23,241 nucleotides of DNA from an uncultured Enterobacterales bacterium (GCA_964464515.1 CAYXGP010000132.1:1-23241), one strand, 5' to 3'; positions 1 to 20,725 are shown, counted from the stretch's first letter. Notes: generated from the letters alone by a model not told the origin. Made by a program: numbers and translations.

Positions 1-195
1 GGGCCGCGAGGCCCGGGGGGGGGGTTCCGCGGGGGGGGGCTGCGGGCGCACAGGCGCGGAGACGACGCGGTGGTCGCCGAGCGCCTGGTCGACACCTACG
101 TGCGGCGGCTCAGGCGCAAGTTCGAGGCGGTCGATGGGGGGTTCGGTGAGATCCAGACGGTGGTCGGCGCGGGGTATCGTTGGCGTCAGGGTTGA
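1..195 (+). CDS. OmpR/PhoB-family response regulator, C-terminal fragment (winged-helix DNA-binding domain); 5' end lies outside the window
   Basis: Frame 1 reads ...DDAVVAERLVDTYVRRLRRKFEAVDGGFGEIQTVVGAGYRWRQG*, with TGA at 193-195. This is the typical C-terminal signature of OmpR-type winged-helix regulators (V..H...LR.K.e......I.TVRGvGYR). Its 3' end overlaps the start of the downstream histidine kinase by 16 nt, as expected for a two-component operon. The first ~50 nt contain long G homopolymers, so the 5' sequence may be unreliable. Confidence 0.6.
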   Translation, partial: GPRGPGGGFRGGGLRAHRRGDDAVVAERLVDTYVRRLRRKFEAVDGGFGEIQTVVGAGYRWRQG

Positions 196-1679
196 ATCTG
201 CTGAGAATACGTTCCCTCCGCCACCGCGCAATCGCGGTCGTCTGCGTGGTCGTGTTCGCGCCGCTCATCCACGTGTGGCTCAGCGATCTGGGAGACGCCA
301 CCGCTGGCGCGCGCATGAACCAGCGCGTAGAGCGCGTGGCCCTGAAGGTCGCAGAGTCGCTGGAGAAGGGCGAGGATCCCCGACGTGTGGCCGACGAGCA
401 GGCGGCCCGGGCGGGCGTGCGTCTGCGGCTCCTCGACGCGGACGGAGCGGTGTCGATCGACGTCGATCACGAGGCAGGAACAGGGGTCCTCCATCGAGTC
501 GGCACGGTCTTCTTCGGACCGGACGGCGCGCCGCGCCTCGATGAGTGGGACGCGCAGCAGGGGCCGCCCATCGAGCGGACGGTCGTGCGCACGGCGATGG
601 AGAGCGGACGGGCCTCGGCGTGTGTCTCCACCGAGGATCGCAAGCTGCTGGTCTGCGAGGCCGCGCTGCGGACAGACGACCCCGAGATCTCGACCATCTA
701 TGTGCAGGTCAGCTCGCGGCGGGCCATCCGCGCGCTGTACGACGTGCGCTACCAGCTCCTCAAGCTCACCCTGTTCGTGCTGGTGAGCGGTCTGGCGTTG
801 GGTTGGTGGCTGGGTTGGCGGATGGTGCGCCCGGTGGAGATGCTGCTGGAGCAGGTGCTGGCGCGCAGACACGCCCGCGACCCCGCGCCCATAGCGCTCG
901 ATCGCGACGACGAGTTCGGTGATCTGGCTGCGGCGTTCAACGAGCTGATGAGCGCGCTGGCCCAGCGCAACCGGGCCAACGAGGCGTTCGCGGCAGACCT
1001 CGTGCATGAGCTGAAGAACCCGGTGGCGGCGGTGCAGGCAGCGGCGGAGGCGCTGGAGTCGGGCCGGCCGGTCAGCCCGGAGCGGGCGCAGCGGCTGGCG
1101 CGGGTGCTGCGGGACAGCTCTCATCGTCTCGACGTATTGGCTAGCGCCTTCCTGGAATTGGCCCGCGCCGAGGCGGGACTGCGCAGCAGCGTGCGCGAGC
1201 CGGTGGATCTGGTGTTGCTGGCCCGGGGCCTGATCGCTGCGCGGGGGGCCGAGCCGGTGACCTTCGAGTTGATCGCGCCCGACGCGGCGATCATCTCGGG
1301 GGTGGCCGAGCGCGTCGAGACGGCCTTGCGCAACCTGCTGGCGAACGCCGCGGCGTTCGCCGCCAAGGCCCACCCGAGCGGCGACGGACGCGTGACGGTA
1401 CGAATTGCCGCGGGCGGTCTCTCCGACATGACAGCTCACGAGGCGACTGGGAGCCACCGCGTGACGGTGAGCGACAACGGACCGGGGATCGCCCCTGAAG
1501 ACCTGCCGCGCATCTTCGATCGCTTCTTTACGCGCGGTCGGCAGGGCGGCACCGGGCTGGGGCTGGCGCTGACACAGGCCATCATCGAGGCCCACGAGGG
1601 GACCATCGCCGCAGCGTCCACCCGGGAGGGCAGCGACTTCACGGTTACACTGCCCCGATGGCCCCCCCTCCCCGGATAG
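180..1679 (+). CDS. Sensor histidine kinase (2 TM, HAMP, HisKA, HATPase_c)
   Basis: A 499-aa ORF with a TTG start at 180, overlapping the response-regulator stop. There is an N-terminal TM helix (AIAVVCVVVFAPLIHVWL) and a second TM (LKLTLFVLVSGLALGWWLGW) followed by a HAMP-like segment. The H-box reads LVHELKNPVAAVQAAAEAL. The ATP-binding G-boxes read VSDNGPGIAPEDLPRIFDRFF...GGTGLGLAL. The alternative in-frame ATG at 315 would remove TM1, so I prefer the upstream start. Confidence 0.85.
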   Translation: MASGLNLLRIRSLRHRAIAVVCVVVFAPLIHVWLSDLGDATAGARMNQRVERVALKVAESLEKGEDPRRVADEQAARAGVRLRLLDADGAVSIDVDHEAGTGVLHRVGTVFFGPDGAPRLDEWDAQQGPPIERTVVRTAMESGRASACVSTEDRKLLVCEAALRTDDPEISTIYVQVSSRRAIRALYDVRYQLLKLTLFVLVSGLALGWWLGWRMVRPVEMLLEQVLARRHARDPAPIALDRDDEFGDLAAAFNELMSALAQRNRANEAFAADLVHELKNPVAAVQAAAEALESGRPVSPERAQRLARVLRDSSHRLDVLASAFLELARAEAGLRSSVREPVDLVLLARGLIAARGAEPVTFELIAPDAAIISGVAERVETALRNLLANAAAFAAKAHPSGDGRVTVRIAAGGLSDMTAHEATGSHRVTVSDNGPGIAPEDLPRIFDRFFTRGRQGGTGLGLALTQAIIEAHEGTIAAASTREGSDFTVTLPRWPPLPG

Positions 1680-3130
1680 ACGGCCCGCGGCTTGACGGCG
1701 TGCGCATCGCGCTGGTCTTTCCGCTGTTTCTGAGCCACAAGCTGGCCAGCTACCAGGACAACGGACGCTTCCTGGGCAACGTGCCGCCGCTGTCGCTGCT
1801 GTATGTGGCGTCGGCCCTGAAGAGCGCGGGCGCGACGGTGCGGCTGTGGGACTGCCCGGCGCTGGGCCTGAGCCTGGACGATGTGATCGAGGCCGTCCGG
1901 TCGTTCGCCCCCGACTACGTGGGGTTCACGCTGACCACCGTGGACTGGGGCAGCTCGCTGGAGTGGATGGAGCGGTTCCACGGCGCGCTGGGGGTGCCCG
2001 TCGTGGTCGGCGGGGTCCACATGGAGTGCTACCCGGCCGAGACCCTCACCCACGACTGCATCGCGCTGGGCTTCATCGGACCGGCCGATCTGGGGGCGGC
2101 GCGGCTGCTGGAGGTGCATGCCGCTGGCGGCGATCTGCGCGCGGTGCCCGGGGCGGTGTTCCGAGACGAAGAACAGGTGGTGGTGGTTCCGCCGCCGACG
2201 CAGCCCCGCACCGACGCGGGCATGCCGCTGCCGGCCCGTGAGCTGATCGACAATCGTCGGTACTTCACGATCGTCTCGCAGCGACGGAACTTCACTGCGG
2301 CGATGAGCAACTTCGGCTGTCCGTACGGCTGTGAATTCTGCATCCTGCGCGCGAGCCCGGTGCGGCAGCGCAGCGCGGCGTCTGTCGCCCGCGAGATGGA
2401 GATCTGCTACCGCGACCACGGCGTTCGGGAGATGGACTTCTTCGATCCGGTCTTCACCCTGCGGCGCCCGCGGGTGTTCGAGATCTGCGCGGAGATCAAG
2501 CGTCGGAACCTGAAGGGGCTCATCTGGTCGATCCGGGCACGCACCGACACCATCGACGAAGAGCTGCTGGACGTGATGTGGGACGCCGGGTGCCGGCGCA
2601 TCTACTACGGCATCGAGGGGGGCTCACCGGAGATCCGCGGGAGGGTCGACAAGCGACTGGTGTCCAACGCGCACATAGCGCAGGTGCTCGCGGCCACCCG
2701 GGCCCGGGGCTACGAGGTGTTGGCGTTCGTGATGATCGGAAATCCGCTGGAGGATCACACCAGCGTGCGGATGACGCGCAACCTGCTGCGCGACTCGGCG
2801 ATCGATCTCATCCAGGTCGCCAGCCTGTTTCCCCTGCCGCGCACCCCCATCTACCGGGAGATCGTCGCGCGCACCGGCCGGGACTACTGGCGCGAGCATG
2901 TGCTGCACGGCGCGTCCATCCACCCGGTCGAGCGGCTGGACACGGGACTCTCAGATGACGAGATCCGCCGGATGGTCACCGAGACCTACCTGTCGTTCTA
3001 CTTTCGGCCGACCTTCGTGGCCTACGCGTTGAAGCGAGCCCGGCGCCCCGAGCACCTGTGGCGGGGTCTGCGGGCCGCGGCGGGGGTGGGGCAGACGTTC
3101 CTGGCCTCCGCACGTCAGCGTCAGGGCTGA
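1658..3130 (+). CDS. B12-binding domain radical SAM protein (class B radical SAM family)
   Basis: A 490-aa ORF. The N-terminal half resembles a cobalamin-binding Rossmann-like domain (VRIALVFPLF...LLYVASALKSAGATVRLWD...VGFTLTT...VVVGGVH). The canonical radical SAM cluster motif CPYGCEFC (CxxxCxxC) is present, followed by a TIM-barrel-like region (RIYYGIEGGSPEI...). The start is uncertain: the ATG at 1658 overlaps the kinase stop by 22 nt, and the GTG near 1700 (VRIALV...) is also possible. Confidence 0.8.
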   Translation: MAPPPRIDGPRLDGVRIALVFPLFLSHKLASYQDNGRFLGNVPPLSLLYVASALKSAGATVRLWDCPALGLSLDDVIEAVRSFAPDYVGFTLTTVDWGSSLEWMERFHGALGVPVVVGGVHMECYPAETLTHDCIALGFIGPADLGAARLLEVHAAGGDLRAVPGAVFRDEEQVVVVPPPTQPRTDAGMPLPARELIDNRRYFTIVSQRRNFTAAMSNFGCPYGCEFCILRASPVRQRSAASVAREMEICYRDHGVREMDFFDPVFTLRRPRVFEICAEIKRRNLKGLIWSIRARTDTIDEELLDVMWDAGCRRIYYGIEGGSPEIRGRVDKRLVSNAHIAQVLAATRARGYEVLAFVMIGNPLEDHTSVRMTRNLLRDSAIDLIQVASLFPLPRTPIYREIVARTGRDYWREHVLHGASIHPVERLDTGLSDDEIRRMVTETYLSFYFRPTFVAYALKRARRPEHLWRGLRAAAGVGQTFLASARQRQG

Positions 3131-3765
3131 CCGACCTCGACGCACGCCGCGCGCAGGGTGTCTCGCAGCGCAATCAGCCCCGCGGATCGATCGGCGTGCC
3201 AGTTCGACTGAGCACCCTGCAGCAGCACCCGCCCCGACAGCTTGCCGATCACGTTGGCGAAGACCAGATCCGAGCCCGACCGCAGGCGCTGGTTGCGCGC
3301 GATCTGCTCCAGATCGGCGTCGCTCGTCTGGGGCGGCGCGGCCTTGAACGAGACGAGAAAGACCCGGGGGGACCACCCGCGGATCTGCGCGAGGATCTTC
3401 GGCGCGGGCTGGAGCGTGAGCGTGAGCGAGGCCTGTCCGGAGGGGATCTTGCCGGCGGAGGTCGCCACCTCGTAGTCACCGACGGCGGAGGCATGCACCA
3501 CGACCCCGCCCGGGTGCTCGGTGATCCACCGGGCCATCTTGCCCATCAGGTCGCGGGTGGAGCCGAAGATCTGGCTGCGGATGCGGCCGGACAGGTGCTC
3601 GGCGCGCAGGCAGGCCTCGGGGCTGCCGAGGAGGGTGACCGCGGCGGCGCCTGCGAGCTGCTCGGCCAGCCACACCCCGGTGCGGCCCGATGAGCTCGCG
3701 GACAGGTAGCGGATGGCGTCGATCGGGTTGCGCGTGGCCCCGGCGGTGATCAGGACGGCTCTCAT
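3121..3765 (-). CDS. Stand-alone CoaB-like protein (phosphopantothenate-cysteine ligase / DFP flavoprotein family, ligase half only)
   Basis: A 214-aa minus-strand ORF beginning MRAVLITAGATRNPIDAIRYLSASSSGRTG. This closely mirrors the CoaB signature (V)[26 protein letters not shown]. Further CoaB-like motifs are VVHASAVGDYE (cf. AAAVADY), LQPAPKIL (cf. LvkNPDIL) and VSFKAAP (cf. VGFAAET). No CoaC/HFCD decarboxylase half is attached. A GAGG sits about 8-11 nt upstream of the ATG. The 3' end converges on, and overlaps by 10 nt, the radical SAM gene. Confidence 0.65.
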   Translation of the reverse strand: MRAVLITAGATRNPIDAIRYLSASSSGRTGVWLAEQLAGAAAVTLLGSPEACLRAEHLSGRIRSQIFGSTRDLMGKMARWITEHPGGVVVHASAVGDYEVATSAGKIPSGQASLTLTLQPAPKILAQIRGWSPRVFLVSFKAAPPQTSDADLEQIARNQRLRSGSDLVFANVIGKLSGRVLLQGAQSNWHADRSAGLIALRDTLRAACVEVGQP

Positions 3766-3997
3766 CGGCGCCTCGGCAGGATCACGGCTCCTCCACGGTG
3801 GGGCGCAGCTTATCTTGATGTCGCGCCCTCGGTGGGGTCATCGCGCAGCTCCAGCACCTCGGTGTACCAGGCCGCGACGGCGGAGGGATCGGCCGGGAAG
3901 GCCCAGCGTGGCGTGCTGGGAGGAGGCGCGAGTCGGCCACGGTGGTGGGGATCCGGTCGAGGGAGTTCGGTGGGGTTCTCAAGAGAGTTCTCCGTGG

Positions 3998-4019
3998 AAC
4001 CATCTGCGAACCATCTGCG
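3998..4019. promoter_or_regulatory. Perfect tandem 11-bp direct repeat (aaccatctgcg aaccatctgcg) in the divergent CoaB-like/PAP2 intergenic region; candidate regulator binding site
   Basis: The repeat is seen directly. It lies about 120 bp upstream of the PAP2 start and about 235 bp upstream of the CoaB-like start. An 11-bp (one helical turn) head-to-tail periodicity is the architecture bound by OmpR/PhoB-type winged-helix regulators. One such regulator is encoded at the left end of the window. Confidence 0.3.
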
Positions 4020-4139
4020 GAGGGTGTTCGGGTGCCTCGACGATCAGCGGTGTTCTGCAGGGCCGCCAGAGTTGATGCGCGGTCACTCCGGCGCGGGGCC
4101 GGCGCTGGATAGTGTATCCCTGGTCACGAGCCGCGAGGT

Positions 4140-4706
4140 GTGGTTCTGGTGCTCCGGCCTCTTCTGATCATCGCTCTGTCGATCGCGGGTGCTCACCTCG
4201 CGGACGCGCCGGCGTGGCGTCTGCTGCACAGCGGCGATGCGGCGGCGCACGACTGGCACCGGCTGCTGCGGGTGTGCGGATTCCTGCCCACGTGGCTGGC
4301 GATCGGCGCGGCGCTGGCGCTGGTCGATCGCGCCTGGCGTCGGGCAGGGCCGCTGGTGCTCTCCGCGGCGCTCAGCGGGTTGGCGGCGGAACTTCTCAAG
4401 CTGATCGTGCGTCGCGAGCGCCCCGGAGCAGCCGGGGAGTATTCGTTCCGGGCCTTCAGCGATGACCCGCTCAGCACCGCGGCACTCGGCATGCCGTCCA
4501 GTCACGCGGCGGTGGCGTTCGGCGGCGCGTGGATGCTGGCGCGGCTGCATCCGCGGCTGGCGCCGGTCCCCCTGCTCCTCGCAGCGGGCTGCGGGCTGAC
4601 CCGGGTGATCGACCGGGCACACTTCTTCAGCGACGTGATCGCGGCGGCGGGGGTGGCGTGGATGCTGGCCTGGTGGCTGGATCAGCGGATAGGGTCTCGG
4701 CCATGA
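4140..4706 (+). CDS. PAP2-superfamily (acid phosphatase / lipid phosphate phosphatase) membrane protein
   Basis: A 188-aa ORF with a GTG start. It carries the three PAP2 signature motifs: KLIVRRERP (KxxxxxxRP), PSSH (PSGH) and RVIDRAHFFSDV (SRxxxxxHxxxD). There are multiple hydrophobic helices. Its stop overlaps the next start in an ATGA arrangement. Confidence 0.75.
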   Translation: MVLVLRPLLIIALSIAGAHLADAPAWRLLHSGDAAAHDWHRLLRVCGFLPTWLAIGAALALVDRAWRRAGPLVLSAALSGLAAELLKLIVRRERPGAAGEYSFRAFSDDPLSTAALGMPSSHAAVAFGGAWMLARLHPRLAPVPLLLAAGCGLTRVIDRAHFFSDVIAAAGVAWMLAWWLDQRIGSRP

Positions 4707-5050
4707 TCGTCGTCACCAACCGCATCCCCGTCTCCTCCGGCCACGAGATCGACTTCGAGGAGCGGTTCCGCAACCGCATCCACCTCGTGGACACCCACCC
4801 CGGGTTCATCCGCAACGAGGTCCACCGGCCCCGCCCCATGCGCTTCGACCACGAGAGCGGTCGCTGGGTAGATGATCCGGAGGGGGAGGGCTACTACGAG
4901 ATCAAGACCTGGTGGCGCGAGCTGGCGGACTTCGAGGCGTGGGTGGGCAGCCCTGATTTCCGGCGCGCACACAGCAGCCGCCCGCCGCGTGAGATGTTTC
5001 GTGGTCCCAACGTGCTGGAGATCCACGAGGTGCTCTTTCAGCCGGAGTGA
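4703..5050 (+). CDS. Antibiotic-biosynthesis-monooxygenase (ABM/Dabb)-like small protein
   Basis: The ATG at 4703 is translationally coupled (ATGA) to the PAP2 stop. The product is about 115 aa: MIVVTNRIPVSSGHEIDFEERFRNRIHLVDTHPGFIRNEVHRP...YYEIKTWWRELADFEAWVGSPDFRRAH. This resembles the ferredoxin-like ABM fold pattern (IVV.....v..g.e.eFee.f......l...pGF....l.r). Length and composition are typical of stand-alone ABM proteins. The family call rests on motif memory only. Confidence 0.55.
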   Translation: MIVVTNRIPVSSGHEIDFEERFRNRIHLVDTHPGFIRNEVHRPRPMRFDHESGRWVDDPEGEGYYEIKTWWRELADFEAWVGSPDFRRAHSSRPPREMFRGPNVLEIHEVLFQPE

Positions 5051-5072
5051 CGAAAGCGCGTGATGCTCCGCC

Positions 5073-6056
5073 TCAGGTGCTCCAGACGACCTCGTGCTCC
5101 GGCCAACGCCACGCCCCGACGCAGCCGCCGACGCCTCCCTTGTGCATCCCCTGGTAGTCCACGCAGACATGTCGCACCGAGTGGGAGAGTTCTACCCGAC
5201 CCGCCGGACCCCGCTGCGGGCTCCAGGTACGGAGCCATCGCCTCTCCGCCTTGGAGCCCAGCACCTCCACCGGCGCGGCTGGCCCATCGGCGCCTGCGGG
5301 CGGGATGTTCCAGTAGTGTCCGAAGACGGTCCGCTTCGAGGTGTCGATCTCGGGCGTGTCCGTTTGCCACCATGGCAGCCGGGCCAGCGGCCACTGCCTC
5401 CCCTCGGCGTCGGTCACCGGGCCGAGCGCTGCGGACTCCAGGCCCTTCATCAGCACCTCGTGGCGAGTGGCATGCGAGCCGTCCACGCCCCAGCGAGGGA
5501 GGTCCGGCCGAGGACCACGCTCATCGAACGGAGAGCCGATGATGATGTACGGTTGGAGCCACGCCGCGCGTCCGTCGGACACCGTCTCGCTACCGGTGGG
5601 GGTCAATGTCGCGCGGAGCATGCGGACGCTGCTGGTGTGCCAGCACGAATGCACCAGCCGCACCTGAGGCAGGTCGATGGCGATGGGAAGGCGCGCCAGG
5701 AAGGCGAGGGCCGACGCCCATCGATCAGGAACCGCGAGGATCTGCCGCCGTGTCTGCGCGTTGCTGGTGCGCTCCTTGCTTCGTCTCTGTGCGTGAGGCG
5801 CGAACCACCACTCCAGCAGGTTGTACTCGTGGTTGCCCATCAGGCAGAGCGCGTCTCCCCGCTCCATGAGTCCCCGGACAAGCTCGACCACGCCGATGCT
5901 GTCCGGGCCTCGATCGACAAGATCGCCCAAGAAGACCGGCGCGCGCGCGTCGGGGTGGGACCAGCCCTGGTTGGTGTCGTAGCCGAGCGCCTCTGCGGTG
6001 CGTAGGAGCGGGCCGAGATGTCCGTGGACGTCGCCGAAGACGTCGATTCCAGTCAC
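5073..6056 (-). CDS. PPP-family metallophosphoesterase (calcineurin-like; ApaH/PrpE/lambda-phosphatase-type)
   Basis: 327 aa. It has the N-terminal signature DVFGDVHGH, then FLGDLVDRGPDS (GDxxDRG) and LMGNHEYN (GNHE). These are the diagnostic PPP phosphatase / symmetrical Ap4A hydrolase motifs. Its start at 6056 overlaps the stop of the upstream phosphoesterase at 6053. Confidence 0.8.
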   Translation of the reverse strand: MTGIDVFGDVHGHLGPLLRTAEALGYDTNQGWSHPDARAPVFLGDLVDRGPDSIGVVELVRGLMERGDALCLMGNHEYNLLEWWFAPHAQRRSKERTSNAQTRRQILAVPDRWASALAFLARLPIAIDLPQVRLVHSCWHTSSVRMLRATLTPTGSETVSDGRAAWLQPYIIIGSPFDERGPRPDLPRWGVDGSHATRHEVLMKGLESAALGPVTDAEGRQWPLARLPWWQTDTPEIDTSKRTVFGHYWNIPPAGADGPAAPVEVLGSKAERRWLRTWSPQRGPAGRVELSHSVRHVCVDYQGMHKGGVGGCVGAWRWPEHEVVWST

Positions 6057-6958
6057 CTGAGCCTCCGCGGGGTCACGTCCAGACTCGGGCCTACCACGAA
6101 GATCTGGCGAGAAGGGAGCTCGACGGCGAAGAGTCGGCCAGTCTGGTCGATCTCCCCCGAGAGGCAGATGCGATTGGGTGTGAGCACGTGGGGTGCATGG
6201 CTGGAGAGCCCTGAGCGTCGCGCGGGGTTCCTGGTGTGACCGCTGACCACGACGCGGTCCCAGCTCGGGTCGGAGCTACCGCAGAGGTCCTTGTCTCGGA
6301 TGGCGGGCGGAAGCCACTCGTGCACGTCGGGGAGCAGCTTGCGGGCCAGGCGGTCGCGCTGCGGACCCAGCGGCCCGGTCTGCATCCCGGCATGAACGAA
6401 CAGATGCGCGCCCGTGTCGAAGAACCAGGGGAGCGAGCGCAGAAACGCCTGGTGGTGCGCGGGCATCGAGGTCGCGAGATCCTCTGCGGAGTGAGCGCCG
6501 TAGGCTGCGGCGGTGCCCAACCCCAGGTTCCAGTAGCGACTGCGCCAGCGCGCGTACCAGACCGGATCGGGCGCGGTGCCGGGCCAGCCCAGCGCGCGGA
6601 GGCAGGCCAGATCGTGGTTTCCGATGATCGGAACGAAGCGGTCTTTGCGCTCGGCCCGCAGCTCGATCAGCAGGTCGAGCAGGCCAGGGATGTCCGGTCC
6701 GTTGTCGACGTAGTCCCCGAGCGTCACGAGGTTCCAGCGGTCGCCGTGGATCTGGTCGAGCCGCCGGATCAGCGCCCGCAGGTGGTCGGGGTGGCCGTGC
6801 AGGTCTGCGACCGCCACCCAGGTCTCTTCGGCGGACCTTCTACAGACCTGCTCAGCCGCCGAGGTGTCGCGCTCTTCGCTCACGGTCAGGAGCCGAGCCG
6901 CGACCAATGCATCGATCGTCGTGCCACCCTCAACCTTCAGTTCGTCGCTCTGGAACAT
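6053..6958 (-). CDS. PPP-family metallophosphoesterase, second tandem copy
   Basis: Motifs VAVADLHGHP (GDxHG), LGDYVDNGPD (GDxxDxG), IIGNHD (GNHD/E) and FVHAGM/SGHT. I prefer the ATG at 6958 (MFQSDELKV...) over the upstream GTG at 7018 in the ORF track. The extension would overlap the ARH-like remnant. Confidence 0.75.
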   Translation of the reverse strand: MFQSDELKVEGGTTIDALVAARLLTVSEERDTSAAEQVCRRSAEETWVAVADLHGHPDHLRALIRRLDQIHGDRWNLVTLGDYVDNGPDIPGLLDLLIELRAERKDRFVPIIGNHDLACLRALGWPGTAPDPVWYARWRSRYWNLGLGTAAAYGAHSAEDLATSMPAHHQAFLRSLPWFFDTGAHLFVHAGMQTGPLGPQRDRLARKLLPDVHEWLPPAIRDKDLCGSSDPSWDRVVVSGHTRNPARRSGLSSHAPHVLTPNRICLSGEIDQTGRLFAVELPSRQIFVVGPSLDVTPRRLR

Positions 6959-7178
6959 GCGTAACGGCTTCCAGCAGGGAGCGACCCTCGAGGACCTCTC
7001 GCAGGATCCGGCACGCACCCACGGCCGCCTCTGCGGCGTTCGGGTGTCCGTGGGTGATCATCGCCGAGACGCGCACTGCGTCCAGAAGATCTTCGCCGCT
7101 GAACAACACAGGCAGGGGACAGATGCGCATGACAGCGCCGCAGCCCTCAGAGCTGCGCACCTCGCCGGAGCGCCACAC
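6930..7178 (-). pseudogene. ADP-ribosylglycohydrolase (ARH/DraG family)-like remnant, apparently truncated or frameshifted
   Basis: An 82-aa ORF reading ...SSEGCGAVMRICPLPVLFSGEDLLDAVRVSAMITHGHPNAAEAAVGACRILREVL. This matches the central ARH family motifs (GNGaaMRiaPigl ... THxHPea..ga.a.A.ai). A TGA lies immediately upstream in this frame. The expected N-terminal GDALG/TDDT region and C-terminal GGDTDT region are not found intact. The flanking sequence changes frame and the ORF stops 29 nt inside the downstream phosphoesterase start region. Extent is uncertain. Confidence 0.4.
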
Positions 7179-15468: not shown

Positions 15469-18390
15469 ATGTCGCGCCTGATCGTGCCATTGGGAATCCT
15501 GGCTGTGCTCTCCGGGGGCTGCCTCCCCTCCTTCCCCGACCGCAGCTTCAGCGAAGATCCCGAGCACGACTTCGACGGCGACGGCCTCAGCGAGCTGGAC
15601 GGCGACTGCGACGACGCCCAGGCCACCGCCTACCCCGACGGCGAAGAGATCTGCGACGGGATCGACAACGACTGCGATGGCAACATCGACGAGCCCACCG
15701 CCACTGACGCCTCCACCTGGTACGGCGACGAAGACCGCGACGGCTACGGCGCCGACACCTTCACCCTCACCTCCTGCACCCAGCCCGACGGCTTCTCCGC
15801 CGAGTCCGGCGACTGCGACGACGCCGTAGCCGCGATCAACCCCGCCGCCACCGAGACCTGCGACGGCACCGACAACGACTGCGATGGCCTGATCGACGAA
15901 GCCGACCCCTCGATGGAGGGCGAGGCCACCTGGTATCTCGATCGCGACGGCGACTACGTCGGCGACGAGTCCGAGTCCGTCGAGAGCTGTGACCAGCCGA
16001 GCGCCTCCCATGTCCGCGATGCAGGCGACTGTGACGACACCGACGCCTCCATCCACCCCCGCGCTGAGGAACGGTGCAACGAGAAGGATGACGACTGCGA
16101 TGGCCTGATCGATGACGACGACGCGGTCGAGTCCCCTGCGGTCTGGACCATCGATGCGGATGGGGACGGTTACGGCAGCGCTGCGACCAGCGCAGCAACA
16201 CTGGAGCAGTGTACGCCCCCCGATGGCTATGTAGAGGACGCCTCCGATTGTGATGACTCCGACGCTTCAGTCTCACCGGATGGCGAAGAGGTCTGCAACG
16301 AGATCGATGACGACTGCGACGACGTTGTCGATGACGGGGTCCAGACCACCTACTTCGATGACTCCGATGGGGATGGGTACGGCAACATCGCGATCAGCCA
16401 AGGCGCCTGTGAGACCCCACCATCCGGGTTCGTCTCGGACGCGACGGACTGCGATGACCTGAACGCGTCCGTTCACCCGGATGCTGACGAGTACTGCGAC
16501 GAGATCGACAACGACTGCGACGAGTACACGGACGAATCCGACGCTGTGGACGCGACGGTGTGGTACCGGGATGCGGACGAAGACGGCTACGGCGATGACG
16601 TTGTGAGCGAAGCGAGCTGCAGCGCCATCTCAGGCTACGTCGACGTTGGTGGTGACTGCGAAGACGCGATGGATGGTATCAATCCTGGAGCGACCGAGAC
16701 TTGCTATACCACCGATGATGATGATTGCTCAGGTAGCACCAACGATGAGGGCGCAACCGCCTGCGTGACCTGGTACCTCGACGATGATGGCGATGGCTAT
16801 GGTACTGAAGATGATGATGCCTGCCTATGTGTTGCCGAAGGGAGCTACCGAAGTAGGGTGACCGGAGACTGCGACGACTCAGACACCACCATCTCTCCCG
16901 ATGACCTTGAACGCTGCGATAGCGTCGACAACGACTGTGATGGCGATACCGACGAGGAGGATGCTGATGATTGTACCGCCTACTTCTACGACTGGGACGG
17001 CGATGGCTATGGCATCAACGACAGCAGGTGCCTCTGCTCTGATGATGGGTACTACAGGACTATGGCACTGGGAGACTGCGATGACGAAGATGCGGGAGTC
17101 TCACCGGATACACTCATGTGCGGATTGTATGGCGAGATCTCTTCAGATACTTCTGTAGGGTACTTGTCAGAGGGAGTGGTGCATGCTGGAGGAGCCGCTG
17201 TAAAGGCCTTCTCTGGAGATTTTGACTACGACTTGGATGGCTATACAGATATTGTCGCTGCCAGTACGGGTTTTGATAGTTCCTACACTGATGCTGGAGC
17301 GGTATTTCTCTTTCGTGGCCCCGTGTCTGGTGAGCACCTGTTGGATAGCACTACGGATGCGGATATGGTAGTAACTTCTACACAACCACAGTCCTATTTT
17401 GGGTCCGAGGTCAGCGCCGGTGACTTTGATGGCGACTACAGAGATGAACTGTTGATCTCAGCTTGGGGGAGCGGCCAGAGTTACTTCGTTGATGATGGGA
17501 TGAATGGGATAGGGACGCTGACCACGTCGTCTGTTGGAGTAGAGGTGTTGGGGTATGGTTCTGTAAGAGCACTATCAGATGTGAATGACGATGGTTTTGA
17601 TGATGCGGTTGTGGCGAGTGGGACTGCATCCACAACCTACCGATTGTCTTCAGGGTACATCGCATATGGAAGTCTGAGTGGATTGATCCCAGACACTTCA
17701 GGAGGCGATTTTTTTGATGGAAGGCTGTCGGGATCTGGAAACGCGGGTTCCATCGAGGCCCTTACGGCGGGAGGAGACGTTGATTCCGATGGGGTTTCTG
17801 ATCTTATCGCATATACTCATTCGTATTGGTTCTTGCGGGTTCACCTGGGCCCCTCAACGGCTGGAGGAACACTGTCTTTAGTCCCCGATGCCGAAGTCAA
17901 TATTGAGGCGTCCGAACCGGTTGTGTCCTTCATTGGAGACCTAAATGATGATGGATATGGCGACGTCGTATACGGCGAATATGCATATGACGGATATAGT
18001 AGCACAGAGGGTGATTTATACAACTCCGGAATTGTATTGGTGTTCATCGGGGATGCCACAGGTCTCCAAGCAACGTCTGAGGAAGACGCGAACTGGATTT
18101 TGTTGGGTGAGGACCACTATGATGAGTATGGGTTTGACTTTGGTGGTGGTGATATCAACGGGGACAGGTCTAATGACATAGTGATTTCATCAAAAGAAGG
18201 GCGTCCAGCCCTCCTATACTACGGTCCTTTGGTAGACGGCTCGTACGTGCAATCTGATGCAGATGCATCATTCTCCTTCCTCAACCCAGAGGCTGTTCAC
18301 TCTGCGGGGGATGTAGATAGCGATGGATATGACGATCTTCTCGTTGGGTCCGTCGATGATGAGATTTATCTCTTTCTGGGAGGCCCCTGA
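15469..18390 (+). CDS. Giant lipoprotein: about 10 MopE-type putative metal-binding Cys/Asp repeats followed by a 7-bladed FG-GAP (integrin-alpha-like) propeller region
   Basis: 973 aa. The lipoprotein signal reads MSRLIVPLGILAVLSGGCLP. The repeat unit is WY.D.DGDGYG....C..P.G...D.GDCDD.D..I.P.A.E.CDG.DNDCDG.IDE, the MopE/'putative metal-binding motif' family. The C-terminal third carries FG-GAP-like blades (GDFDYDLDGYTDIV, GDFDGDYRDELLI, SDVNDDGFDDAVV, GDVDSDGVSDLI, GDLNDDGYGDVV, GDINGDRSNDIVI, GDVDSDGYDDLLV). GC drops to roughly 45-55% from about 17100 onward. Confidence 0.85.
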   Translation: MSRLIVPLGILAVLSGGCLPSFPDRSFSEDPEHDFDGDGLSELDGDCDDAQATAYPDGEEICDGIDNDCDGNIDEPTATDASTWYGDEDRDGYGADTFTLTSCTQPDGFSAESGDCDDAVAAINPAATETCDGTDNDCDGLIDEADPSMEGEATWYLDRDGDYVGDESESVESCDQPSASHVRDAGDCDDTDASIHPRAEERCNEKDDDCDGLIDDDDAVESPAVWTIDADGDGYGSAATSAATLEQCTPPDGYVEDASDCDDSDASVSPDGEEVCNEIDDDCDDVVDDGVQTTYFDDSDGDGYGNIAISQGACETPPSGFVSDATDCDDLNASVHPDADEYCDEIDNDCDEYTDESDAVDATVWYRDADEDGYGDDVVSEASCSAISGYVDVGGDCEDAMDGINPGATETCYTTDDDDCSGSTNDEGATACVTWYLDDDGDGYGTEDDDACLCVAEGSYRSRVTGDCDDSDTTISPDDLERCDSVDNDCDGDTDEEDADDCTAYFYDWDGDGYGINDSRCLCSDDGYYRTMALGDCDDEDAGVSPDTLMCGLYGEISSDTSVGYLSEGVVHAGGAAVKAFSGDFDYDLDGYTDIVAASTGFDSSYTDAGAVFLFRGPVSGEHLLDSTTDADMVVTSTQPQSYFGSEVSAGDFDGDYRDELLISAWGSGQSYFVDDGMNGIGTLTTSSVGVEVLGYGSVRALSDVNDDGFDDAVVASGTASTTYRLSSGYIAYGSLSGLIPDTSGGDFFDGRLSGSGNAGSIEALTAGGDVDSDGVSDLIAYTHSYWFLRVHLGPSTAGGTLSLVPDAEVNIEASEPVVSFIGDLNDDGYGDVVYGEYAYDGYSSTEGDLYNSGIVLVFIGDATGLQATSEEDANWILLGEDHYDEYGFDFGGGDINGDRSNDIVISSKEGRPALLYYGPLVDGSYVQSDADASFSFLNPEAVHSAGDVDSDGYDDLLVGSVDDEIYLFLGGP

Positions 18391-18396
18391 CCTCCC

Positions 18397-19968
18397 ATGC
18401 GCCACTTCAACACCGCCGGCGTCTGCCAACCCACCCACCATTACATGCTCCCACCGGAGCAGCGCCTACCTGATCTCGGCCGCCTGGTAGATCAGAACGC
18501 CTACCTCATCGTCCACGCCCCCCGACAGACCGGCAAGACCACCACCCTTCGAGCCTTCGCCGCCACCTTGACCGCAGAGGGCCGCCATGCCGCCTTGCTG
18601 ATGTCCTGCGAAGGAGGACAGGTCTTCCCCGACAACATCGCGGCGGTCGAACAGCAGCTCTGGCGCTCGTTGATGCGATCAGCCCGAGCCCAGCTCCCCG
18701 AGTCATTGCGCCCACCTGAACCGGTCGCTGGCGCGGTCGGCGCCCATCTCGAAGACAACCTGGCTCGCTGGGCCCAGGCCTGTCCCCGCCCGATTGTCCT
18801 GGTCCTCGATGAGATCGATGCCCTGATCGGCGATGCGCTGATCAGTGTGCTTCGCCAGCTCCGAGCGGGTCACCCCGATCGCCCGCAGGCATTCCCGGCC
18901 TCGGTGATCCTGTGCGGTCTACGGGATGTGCAGGACTACAAACTGGCGGCCGGCGGCGGTCCGGTTCGCCCCGGTTCGCCGAGTCCGTTCAACATCCTGG
19001 TCAAGTCGATGACGCTGGGCAACTTCACGGAGGCCGAGGTCTCGACGCTCTATGCACAGCATACGCTGGATACGGGACAACCCTTCACCGATCAGGGAAC
19101 GGCGCGGGCCTACCACCTGAGCGGTGGTCACCCGTGGCTGGTCAACGCCCTGGCCCGCGAGGTCATCGAGGAGATGGGTGTCACCGACCCCATCACCGCT
19201 GCACACATGGACACCGCAGCCGAGCGACTCATCCTGGCGCGTGCGACCCACCTCGACAACCTGGTCCACAAGCTCTCTGAGCCACGCGTTCGGAGGGTGA
19301 TCGAGCCCGTGATCGCGGGGAACATCGCCCGAGTCGGCGCAAACTGGAGCGAGGACGTTCGCTATGTCCGCGACCTCGGTCTGATCGCCCCCCACTCGCC
19401 GATTCAGATCGCCAACCCGATCTACCGGGAAGTGATCGTGCGGGTTCTCGCAGACGGGCCGGACGATGTCCTCGTCATTCCACCGACCCGGTCCTTCATC
19501 CAGCCGGACGGCACGCTCGATCTGAGACGCATCTTGGAGGAGTTCGCGGTGTTTTGGCGAGAGCACGGCGACGCCCTCGCCGACGGCATCGTCTGGCACG
19601 AGGTGGCGGCGCAGCTCGTCCTGATGGCGTACCTACAGCGTGTGGTCAACGGCGGCGGCTTCGTGACCCGGGAGTATGGCATCGGGCGCGGGCGCATCGA
19701 CCTGTTGGTCCGGTGGCCGCACCTCGTCCTCGAAGAGCGCCACTGGCAACGCGAAGCGCTGGAGCTCAAGGCGTGGCGTGACAAGAAGCCGGACCCGTTG
19801 AGCAAGGGCCTCCAACAGCTCGACGGCTACCTCGATCGGCTTGGATTGGATACCGGGGTGCTCGTCCTCTTCGATCGGCGATCCAACGCCGGACCCATCC
19901 ATGAACGGACTATCTTCTCCGAGACGACCACCCCCTCCGGCAAGACCATCACCCTGCTCCGCGCATGA
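18397..19968 (+). CDS. AAA-ATPase-like domain protein with C-terminal PD-(D/E)xK-like region (family resembling Pfam AAA-ATPase_like plus PDDEXK_9 / DUF1703)
   Basis: 523 aa. The start is 6 nt after the upstream stop. The N-terminus MRHFNTAGVCQPTHHYMLPPEQRLPDLGRLVDQNAYLIVHAPRQTGKTTTL matches, as far as I recall, the highly conserved opening of the 'predicted AAA-ATPase' family (MR.FNT.GPC.PE.HYML...R....L...I....YF..HAPRQ.GKTT). This assignment is from memory, not a database search. A Walker-B-like motif (IVLVLDEIDAL) follows. The C-terminal part (EYGIGRGRIDLLVRW...ELKAWR) is compatible with a PD-(D/E)xK nuclease-like fold. Confidence 0.7.
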   Translation: MRHFNTAGVCQPTHHYMLPPEQRLPDLGRLVDQNAYLIVHAPRQTGKTTTLRAFAATLTAEGRHAALLMSCEGGQVFPDNIAAVEQQLWRSLMRSARAQLPESLRPPEPVAGAVGAHLEDNLARWAQACPRPIVLVLDEIDALIGDALISVLRQLRAGHPDRPQAFPASVILCGLRDVQDYKLAAGGGPVRPGSPSPFNILVKSMTLGNFTEAEVSTLYAQHTLDTGQPFTDQGTARAYHLSGGHPWLVNALAREVIEEMGVTDPITAAHMDTAAERLILARATHLDNLVHKLSEPRVRRVIEPVIAGNIARVGANWSEDVRYVRDLGLIAPHSPIQIANPIYREVIVRVLADGPDDVLVIPPTRSFIQPDGTLDLRRILEEFAVFWREHGDALADGIVWHEVAAQLVLMAYLQRVVNGGGFVTREYGIGRGRIDLLVRWPHLVLEERHWQREALELKAWRDKKPDPLSKGLQQLDGYLDRLGLDTGVLVLFDRRSNAGPIHERTIFSETTTPSGKTITLLRA

Positions 19969-19981
19969 CCCGGCTCCACCG

Positions 19982-20725
19982 ATGAAACTCAGCAAGATCG
20001 GCCGGAACGAACGCTGCCCCTGCGGGAGCGGCAAGAAGTACAAGCGCTGCTGCCTCAACCGAGATCCACTCGCCGACGCTGCCAGCGAAGATCTACAGGT
20101 GATCGCGGACCTGGTAGAGAGCAGGGATGATGTCCTCGGCGAGGAGCTGCTGTTCCACCTTCGGGATCTGCTCAAGCCGGGCGGGCTGCTCGAAAATCTG
20201 CGCTACAACGATGTTCGCTTCACGCGTGCGGTTGCTCCGTCCCTTCCCCGGCTGATGGAGGAGTTTCCCGATGGGCCCAGCACCAGGGATGGTGGCCAGA
20301 ATCCAGCTGCTCTCGACCGCTGGATGGAGCTCAGCATTCCTTTGCTCACATCCCGCCGGTTCGCGGTCCGGGCACAAGCCGAATTGATGGAGGTGCTCGC
20401 CGATGGGGAGCTCGATGCGCCCTATCGTCAGGCCCTTCTGCTCGCGATGCCCAGAATGGACGCCGGTCCGCATGACGGTCCCAGCTTTCTCGATGCTGCC
20501 CTCTTCCCGATACAAGCCCGAGAGTGGTTGTTAGATTGGCTCGCTCTCCAGGATGCGCTTGAACAGCCCCCTGAGCCCACCGATGACGCCTCCACGGCAG
20601 AGCCCTCGTCAACCCGATCACTCAATGAGGTCTTCTCAGGGGCTCCCCACATGATGTTGACCGTCGAAGGTCCACTCCGTGAAATGGGTCTGGGTCACCT
20701 CATCGATGGTCTGCCGACCGAGTAG
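19982..20725 (+). CDS. SEC-C motif domain protein (N-terminal CPCGSGKKYKRCC zinc-binding motif)
   Basis: The ATG at 19982 gives MKLSKIGRNERCPCGSGKKYKRCC, the SEC-C metal-binding motif. The remaining ~220 aa are helical and acidic, with no recognised domain. It lies 13 nt downstream of the preceding gene and 18 nt upstream of the next. I reject the ORF-track start at 19841 (P-rich extension). Confidence 0.7.
   Translation: MKLSKIGRNERCPCGSGKKYKRCCLNRDPLADAASEDLQVIADLVESRDDVLGEELLFHLRDLLKPGGLLENLRYNDVRFTRAVAPSLPRLMEEFPDGPSTRDGGQNPAALDRWMELSIPLLTSRRFAVRAQAELMEVLADGELDAPYRQALLLAMPRMDAGPHDGPSFLDAALFPIQAREWLLDWLALQDALEQPPEPTDDASTAEPSSTRSLNEVFSGAPHMMLTVEGPLREMGLGHLIDGLPTE

Follow-up and report, generated by a model that had tools for sequence, protein, structure and literature searches.

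A two-component system, a class-B radical SAM gene and a CoaB-like ligase gene on a marine metagenomic contig: probably a mosaic of independent units

The contig CAYXGP010000132.1 from an uncultured Enterobacterales bacterium, a complete metagenomic contig of 23,241 bp from a marine source with a G+C content of 65–70%, was analysed over its whole length (hereafter the window). Its first 5050 bases contain, in order, the 3' end of a response-regulator gene and the genes for a sensor histidine kinase, a class-B radical S-adenosylmethionine (SAM) enzyme, a CoaB-like protein, a PAP2 phosphatase and an ABM-fold protein (Table 1). An original prediction, made from the sequence alone, had named these genes and read them as one regulated pathway. 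The identities and coordinates hold up: Pfam domains match every gene named, and the codon-position G+C content (0.83–0.92 at third positions and 0.42–0.56 at second positions) lends coding support to all six. Comparison with related genomes speaks against the pathway, leading us to propose that positions 1–5050 are probably a mosaic of independent units brought together as a chance neighbourhood in one lineage.

Four functionally independent units would, on this proposal, have become adjacent in one high-G+C, marine, Myxococcota-like lineage; homologues of the encoded proteins are labelled Myxococcota or belong to metagenome-assembled genomes from sea water labelled 'Deltaproteobacteria'. The first unit would be an envelope-sensing operon for an OmpR-type two-component system, its 3' end joined to a class-B radical SAM gene that normally stands alone. 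The second would be a stand-alone CoaB-like nucleotide-dependent ligase that kept its nucleotide-activating residues (the Lys289 equivalent and AVGDY) and lost Asn210, the third the PAP2 membrane phosphatase and the fourth an IsdG-type heme-degrading monooxygenase that may have become translationally coupled to PAP2 in this lineage only. The 11 bp repeat between the second and third units would be a slippage duplication within a long noncoding spacer.

The gene neighbourhoods of relatives carry the argument. Flanks of up to 10 kb around 18 distinct orthologues of the radical SAM gene (58–65% identity; loci L005, L008 and L014–L029) were searched with nine window proteins (tblastn, E ≤ 1e-5), and none of the 18 loci gave a match to the response regulator, the kinase, the CoaB-like protein, PAP2, the ABM protein, the metallophosphoesterases or the vault-like protein. 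Many of these loci share the order Aldedh, DUF362, MaoC, DUF525/ApaG, (ABC transporter), radical SAM, (chlorite-dismutase-like), FHA-GAF cyclase, MGMT, hydantoinase, and none of this order is present in the window genome. DUF525/ApaG lies upstream of the radical SAM gene in 11 loci, an FHA-GAF adenylate/guanylate cyclase is present in ten and a chlorite-dismutase/HemQ-like gene occurs nearby in nine, directly downstream and convergent where gene calls exist (L008). Two loci with more distant homologues of 40% identity place the gene between ArgS (arginyl-tRNA synthetase) and a sulfatase in one instance and between OmpA and RecD2 in the other, and neither has a gene for a two-component system, a CoaB-like protein, PAP2 or an ABM protein in its vicinity; genes for a topoisomerase and a thymidylate synthase also adjoin homologues at this level. 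The differing neighbours across these loci indicate that the radical SAM family is solitary, with no conserved partner. The same holds from the other sides of the cluster. No radical SAM, PAP2 or ABM gene was present in the four loci with CoaB-like orthologues (52–61% identity), the neighbours of which encode a GMC oxidoreductase, a PunA-type purine nucleoside phosphorylase or adenosine 5'-phosphosulfate kinase, and the four closest PAP2 loci (60–65% identity) contained neither an ABM nor a CoaB-like gene; these have an arginine-deiminase-like gene upstream and, downstream, a TPR protein, a gene of no known identity or a convergent alcohol dehydrogenase.

These counts bear directly on the pathway reading, in which the two-component system would control one modification pathway, with the radical SAM, CoaB-like, PAP2 and ABM proteins acting on a single phosphorylated or lipidic substrate and the 11 bp repeat serving as the operator. 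No pair of these genes co-occurs in the 18 and two radical SAM loci, the four CoaB-like loci or the four PAP2 loci. Absence of co-occurrence in related genomes had been set down beforehand as the finding on which the reading would fall, and on that ground it fails. Each family is also widespread alone in unrelated contexts, the heme-oxygenase triad of the ABM protein does not suit a lipid or phospho-substrate pathway, and the repeat motif lacks a copy upstream of the two-component operon or of PAP2 orthologues. The features that speak for such a pathway are the compact layout with its gene overlaps, the noncanonical CoaB-like protein (Ala at Asn210, scores below cutoff), the length of the noncoding spacer, and the perfect 11 bp repeat, which is rare by composition and of a period that would suit an OmpR-family regulator. 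Taken together, we regard the pathway as highly improbable. Had it existed, it would have tied signal sensing to cobalamin-dependent radical chemistry; the comparative evidence says instead that the neighbourhood is accidental. The lasting value of the region lies in two large uncharacterized families, the solitary class-B radical SAM enzymes and a subfamily of CoaB-like ligases without the canonical Asn.

Proteins of the window are identical on four other contigs of the same species, including a 62.5 kb Joint Genome Institute (JGI) contig, L001, on which the response-regulator gene is complete (window position equals L001 position minus 8343). The two sequences differ at 18 positions over 13,130 shared bases. 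All but one of the differences fall within window bases 1–67, and all 17 of these read G in the window, in runs of 9–10 G; the mismatches are a poly-G artefact of the assembly end that garbles response-regulator amino acids. The frame 1 translation of the window ends ...VDTYVRRLRRKFE...GAGYRWRQG before the stop codon. The complete regulator comprises 229 residues (L001 7849–8538) and has both a receiver domain and a winged-helix output domain (Response_reg and Trans_reg_C). The kinase has two predicted transmembrane segments flanking a periplasmic domain of ∼150 residues, followed by HAMP, HisKA and HATPase_c. The pair thus resembles OmpR/PhoB–EnvZ-type systems in its regulator domains, in the architecture of its kinase and in having regulator and kinase genes that abut or overlap. 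It differs in that the operon runs straight into a radical SAM gene, as it does at none of the radical SAM orthologue loci. No NCBIfam equivalog cutoff was reached by the kinase (best CreC, 132 against 356); its nearest relatives there are CreC, ChvG, PnpS, WalK, MtrB and BaeS. Its start is less clear: with the regulator stop TGA at 193–195, translation could begin at TTG180 (16 nt overlap), TTG192 (TTGA overlap) or GTG246, so that the junction is tight and its exact position uncertain. The predicted 16 nt overlap corresponds to TTG180; gene callers favour TTG192 (the JGI caller) or GTG246 (others).

Directly 5' of the response regulator lie two genes (L001 6651–7830) for Cys-rich lipoproteins, each with a lipobox signal peptide and neither matching a Pfam family; the nearer stops a few bases before the regulator start. 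They probably belong to the operon and to envelope sensing, and the two-component system, judged from its domains and these neighbours, looks like an envelope sensor.

The junction between the kinase and the radical SAM gene is better defined. The kinase stop codon (1677–1679) lies beyond ATG1658, giving an overlap of 22 nt. Residues Arg11, Leu12 and Gly14 of the radical SAM protein are invariant or nearly so among 30 homologues and precede GTG1700. Of the in-frame starts ATG1658 alone retains them, and the overlap is thus real, as had been supposed. A consensus scan of positions 1–5200 found no promoter-like site and three weak terminator-like hairpins (0.9 ± 1.2 in shuffled sequences), with no promoter or terminator signal above shuffle level between kinase and radical SAM gene. 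Since neither a terminator nor a promoter would fit into the overlaps and the scan found no separating signal, the response regulator, kinase and radical SAM enzyme are very probably encoded on one transcript in this species, as the original prediction had it and as far as sequence can tell.

This raises the possibility of regulatory capture alone, in which the radical SAM gene would have been recruited into the operon of an envelope-stress two-component system so that its modification responds to the signal, with the CoaB-like, PAP2 and ABM genes as bystanders. The 22 nt overlap, with a start codon backed by conservation, and a junction free of terminator or promoter signals above shuffle level agree with this; so does the loss here of the upstream spacer of 70–100 nt that the orthologues of the radical SAM gene possess, and the lipoprotein genes and periplasm-sensing kinase suggest envelope sensing. 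Co-transcription of the two genes is, on the other hand, read from sequence, a promoter inside the kinase gene is possible, and the arrangement is known from a single species and may be selectively neutral. We therefore consider such capture unlikely, although compatible with the junction; in the mosaic that we favour, the position of the radical SAM gene beside the two-component system looks like a lineage-specific juxtaposition.

The radical SAM protein itself belongs to class B, with an N-terminal B12-binding domain (PF02310; 57.2 bits against a cutoff of 32.1, residues 38–145) and a radical SAM core (PF04055) in which the CxxxCxxC cysteines Cys221, Cys225 and Cys228 are invariant across 30 homologues. 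These features are shared with HpnJ, BchE, AprD4, ApyD, PhpK and HpnR, from which the window protein is set apart by scores of 65–104 bits against cutoffs of 480–750, placing it in none of these families. The scores for individual NCBIfam equivalogs include AprD4 at 103.8 (cutoff 500), HpnJ at 103.4 (577.6), BchE at 93.3 (481) and a further class-B model at 65 (650), and of the named families tested (HpnJ, BchE, HpnR, AprD4, PhpK, BzaD and the ladderane radical SAM enzymes) none was reached. Placement in a named class-B family was accordingly rejected on the NCBIfam and PDB comparisons. The best PDB match is AprD4 (PDB code 6fd2), over the radical SAM core only. AprD4 is a radical SAM enzyme with a B12 domain that is not known to use cobalamin, so that a B12-binding domain alone is no proof of B12 dependence. 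In all, 113 homologues were found, with ∼55 orthologues at 54–66% identity and a second tier at 33–41%; the family ranges over marine Myxococcota-like bacteria and, more distantly, Oligoflexia and Omnitrophota. Its orthologues sit alone among housekeeping genes and not in clusters for hopanoids, photosynthesis, antibiotics or ribosomally synthesized and post-translationally modified peptides. By its scores and context the protein is a member of a new, uncharacterized and genomically solitary class-B subfamily. The solitary housekeeping context of its relatives suggests that the enzyme most likely acts on a lipid, RNA or protein belonging to the core of the cell and not on a pathway intermediate.

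The CoaB-like gene is convergent with the radical SAM gene, the 3' ends overlapping by 10 nt (3121–3130). Its 214-residue product carries a CoaB domain (DFP, PF04127; 102.5 bits against a cutoff of 22) and shares with the CoaB of CoaBC and with streptococcal CoaB the DFP Rossmann-like fold and the motifs ITAGxTRxPxDxxRxxS..SG.xG, AAVxDY, K(289)-I and FAN. It scores below all NCBIfam CoaB/CoaBC cutoffs (TIGR00521, 81.9 against 219.7; NF005231, 73 against 265; TIGR02114, 64.9 against 217.2) and is neither fused to nor beside CoaC, no CoaC/flavoprotein gene being present in the flanking sequence, either here or at the four orthologous loci (L010–L013). The original prediction that this is not a canonical CoaBC is borne out by these scores, by the lack of a neighbouring CoaC and by the active site: in alignments with PDB entries 1u7u, 4qji and 2gk4, the position of Escherichia coli Asn210 is occupied by Ala. 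This substitution extends through the subfamily (Ala in 25 of 26 sequences, Ser in the other). Asn210 is reportedly used in the second (cysteine) half-reaction of CoaB, according to mutagenesis by Kupke. In Mycobacterium smegmatis the corresponding N211 is counted among the CoaB active-site residues, and roles have been described for R207, N211 and the K-X-K-K motif, the lysines of which touch the triphosphate of cytidine triphosphate and which has 'few exceptions' (PMC7794376). In the window protein the loop is reduced to K-I-P-S, with the first Lys (Lys106) invariant; the Streptococcus pneumoniae CoaB structure 2gk4 likewise reads K-I-S-S. The nucleotide-handling motifs are kept: ITAGxTRxP, AVGDY and FAN, together with the equivalents of Arg206 and Lys289. 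By our reading of the sequences, FAN is followed by a shorter loop than the E. coli flap. There are 537 homologues, and the best 120 are all of 200–246 residues and consist of the DFP domain alone. A link to the vault/MtnN module described below, suggested by neighbours of the PNP_UDP_1 family, was ruled out, as these neighbours are of the PunA type and not MtnN.

A more ambitious reading makes two independent proposals. The CoaB-like subfamily, with Ala at Asn210, the K-I-P-S loop and a short flap, would be a nucleotide-dependent carboxylate–amine ligase acting on something other than phosphopantothenate and cysteine, and capture of the radical SAM gene by the two-component system would make a core B12/radical SAM modification, probably of an envelope lipid, signal-switched. 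We consider it quite improbable that both hold together.

In the PAP2 protein the three motifs KxxxxxxRP, PSxH and (S/T)RxxxxxHxxxD are intact in the translation (KLIVRRERP, PSSH and TRVIDRAHFFSD), and these acid-phosphatase motifs together with its small polytopic membrane character liken it to phosphatases of the PgpB or undecaprenyl-diphosphatase type. It differs from the named PAP2 families in reaching no equivalog (SepP, 22.9 against 250), and it has 552 homologues. The predicted coupling to the ABM gene is present as a shared ATGA at 4703–4706. The ABM protein aligns with MhuD (PDB code 3hx9), HmoB and TT1380 such that Asn6, a Trp and a His ten residues after the Trp coincide with the catalytic triad; its nearest structure is Thermus TT1380 (PDB code 1iuj; E = 1.2e-16), itself uncharacterized, and the window protein has an insertion of ∼14 residues. 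With IsdG, MhuD, HmuQ and TT1380 it shares the ABM ferredoxin-like fold, a length of ∼105–115 residues and the triad. It differs in this insertion, in not being located with heme-uptake genes and in falling below the NCBIfam cutoffs of the IsdG type (HmuQ, 44.1 against 130; a further model, 38.9 against 119). Conservation of the Asn/Trp/His triad points to a function in heme degradation rather than to a step acting on a lipid or phospho-substrate.

The 374 bp spacer between the divergent CoaB-like and PAP2 genes is noncoding, and a hidden small gene was ruled out, as codon-position G+C is flat in all six frames. No Rfam family matched anywhere in positions 1–5050, and the spacer thus holds no cobalamin or other riboswitch; it has no σ70 consensus promoter. 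The perfect 11 bp direct repeat reported for this spacer is present as two copies of AACCATCTGCG. Perfect tandem duplications of at least 11 bp arise at 0.007 per dinucleotide shuffle, and the contig itself contains two (at 3998 and 13173). The second consists of three perfect 15 bp copies (13173–13217), and a 10 bp duplication occurs at 18961; both are in coding DNA, and slippage duplications would thus be normal for this contig. With its borders extended (13169–13222; 3.6 copies, 97% identity), the 15 bp array encodes an in-frame pentapeptide repeat in a Ser/Thr protein kinase gene (11411–13573). The 11 bp period matches that of the direct repeats (∼10–11 bp) to which regulators of the OmpR family bind, and in its geometry the suggestion that the repeat is a site for such a regulator is reasonable. 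The suggestion finds no support in the distribution of the motif: near-copies with up to two mismatches number nine in the window (7.4 expected, no excess), there is no convincing copy upstream of the two-component operon in L001 and there is none upstream of PAP2 orthologues. The repeat is most simply taken as a slippage duplication, and a regulatory role is possible.

Several considerations weigh against a mosaic. Genes packed this tightly (two co-directional overlaps, an ATGA junction and a convergent overlap of 10 nt) could be functionally coupled. A newly assembled, lineage-specific pathway would equally show no conservation, and the absent co-occurrence therefore lowers the pathway reading without eliminating it. 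All relatives compared have at most 66% protein identity, nothing closer being available except the same species; the radical SAM loci compared exclude the two closest relatives, P0002 and P0003 (66%), and synteny was compared from the radical SAM, CoaB-like and PAP2 sides. Finally, GTTC/GAAC tetramers are more densely clustered at positions 3965–4011, which take in both repeat units, than anywhere else in the window (five within 60 bp, spaced by 10–12 bp, against a contig mean of seven per kilobase; noticed post hoc), and this array could be a real operator.

Table 1. Features of the window, with the additional loci used in the vault-like comparison
Feature	Position	Strand	Basis
OmpR/PhoB-type response regulator, 3' end (winged-helix output domain)	1–195	+	Translation; full gene in L001
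Sensor histidine kinase (HAMP, HisKA, HATPase_c)	180–1679	+	Pfam
Class-B (B12-binding) radical SAM enzyme	1658–3130	+	Pfam: B12-binding 57.2 bits, Radical_SAM 58.8 bits
CoaB/DFP-like protein, 214 residues, stand-alone	3121–3765	-	Pfam DFP
Divergent CoaB-like/PAP2 spacer, 374 bp, noncoding	3766–4139	.	Flat codon-position G+C
Perfect tandem duplication of 11 bp unit AACCATCTGCG	3998–4019	+	Repeat search
Integral-membrane PAP2 phosphatase	4140–4706	+	Pfam PAP2 70.9 bits
ABM-fold protein, IsdG/MhuD/HmuQ heme-oxygenase type	4703–5050	+	Pfam ABM PF03992 56.8 bits
Two tandem calcineurin-like metallophosphoesterases, 4 nt overlap	5073–6056, 6053–7018	-	Pfam
Major-vault-protein-like gene, 575 residues	7569–9296	-	Vault_3, Vault_4, MVP_shoulder, Band_7
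SAM-II (SAM_alpha) riboswitch, full length	9348–9427	-	Rfam 61.8 bits (gathering score 36)
973-residue protein, six MopE-type metal-binding motifs and FG-GAP repeats	15469–18390	+	
AAA ATPase, after the 973-residue protein	18397–19968		
SEC-C-motif protein	19841–20725		
Further vault-like loci of the comparison	L037–L044, L047		Metagenomic

Outside the gene group, a major-vault-protein-like gene lies behind a full-length SAM-II riboswitch, and this lead is more consequential than the group itself, in that it would tie a protein of obscure bacterial function to SAM metabolism. The riboswitch is preceded by a promoter-like TTGACA-N17-TACCGT, and the ATG of the vault-like gene (9296) follows 51 nt downstream, with an 8 bp hairpin that sequesters a GAGGAGG Shine–Dalgarno sequence in between. 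The comparison comprised 15 metagenomic loci with orthologues of 33–62% identity and a G+C content of 0.30–0.65. In two of the 15 the vault-like gene is immediately preceded, on its own strand, by a SAM-I riboswitch above the gathering score (L036, 68.2 bits; L041, 47.9 bits), and two others have weaker SAM-I matches at the same position (L035, 36.3 bits, E = 1.6e-4; L046, 27.7 bits, E = 0.053). A gene of the methylthioadenosine/S-adenosylhomocysteine nucleosidase family is found directly downstream of the vault-like gene in eight of the 15 loci; the three that pass TIGR01704 score 97.9–129.7 against a cutoff of 73.8. Four loci without a riboswitch have a divergent TrmB-type regulator instead. 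Two unrelated classes of SAM riboswitch before orthologous genes, and a SAM-salvage gene in the operon, argue for a tie between bacterial vault-like proteins and SAM metabolism. Bacterial homologues of the major vault protein are already known (bioRxiv 10.1101/872010); our literature search found no paper linking a SAM riboswitch with the major vault protein or a vault with methylthioadenosine nucleosidase, and those in it that name both the protein and riboswitches do not concern such a link.

The two metallophosphoesterase genes between the ABM and vault-like genes have no counterpart at any other vault-like locus compared; the first product is similar to Pnkp phosphatase, PrpE and ApaH but scores below the cutoffs of these families. 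A defence-system reading of the radical SAM, CoaB-like, phosphoesterase and vault-like proteins was dropped, as PADLOC gave no relevant match for any of them. Further along the window, the G+C content falls to 0.51 around the gene for the 973-residue protein with MopE-type motifs (0.65–0.70 elsewhere), and this low-G+C stretch is possibly foreign DNA.

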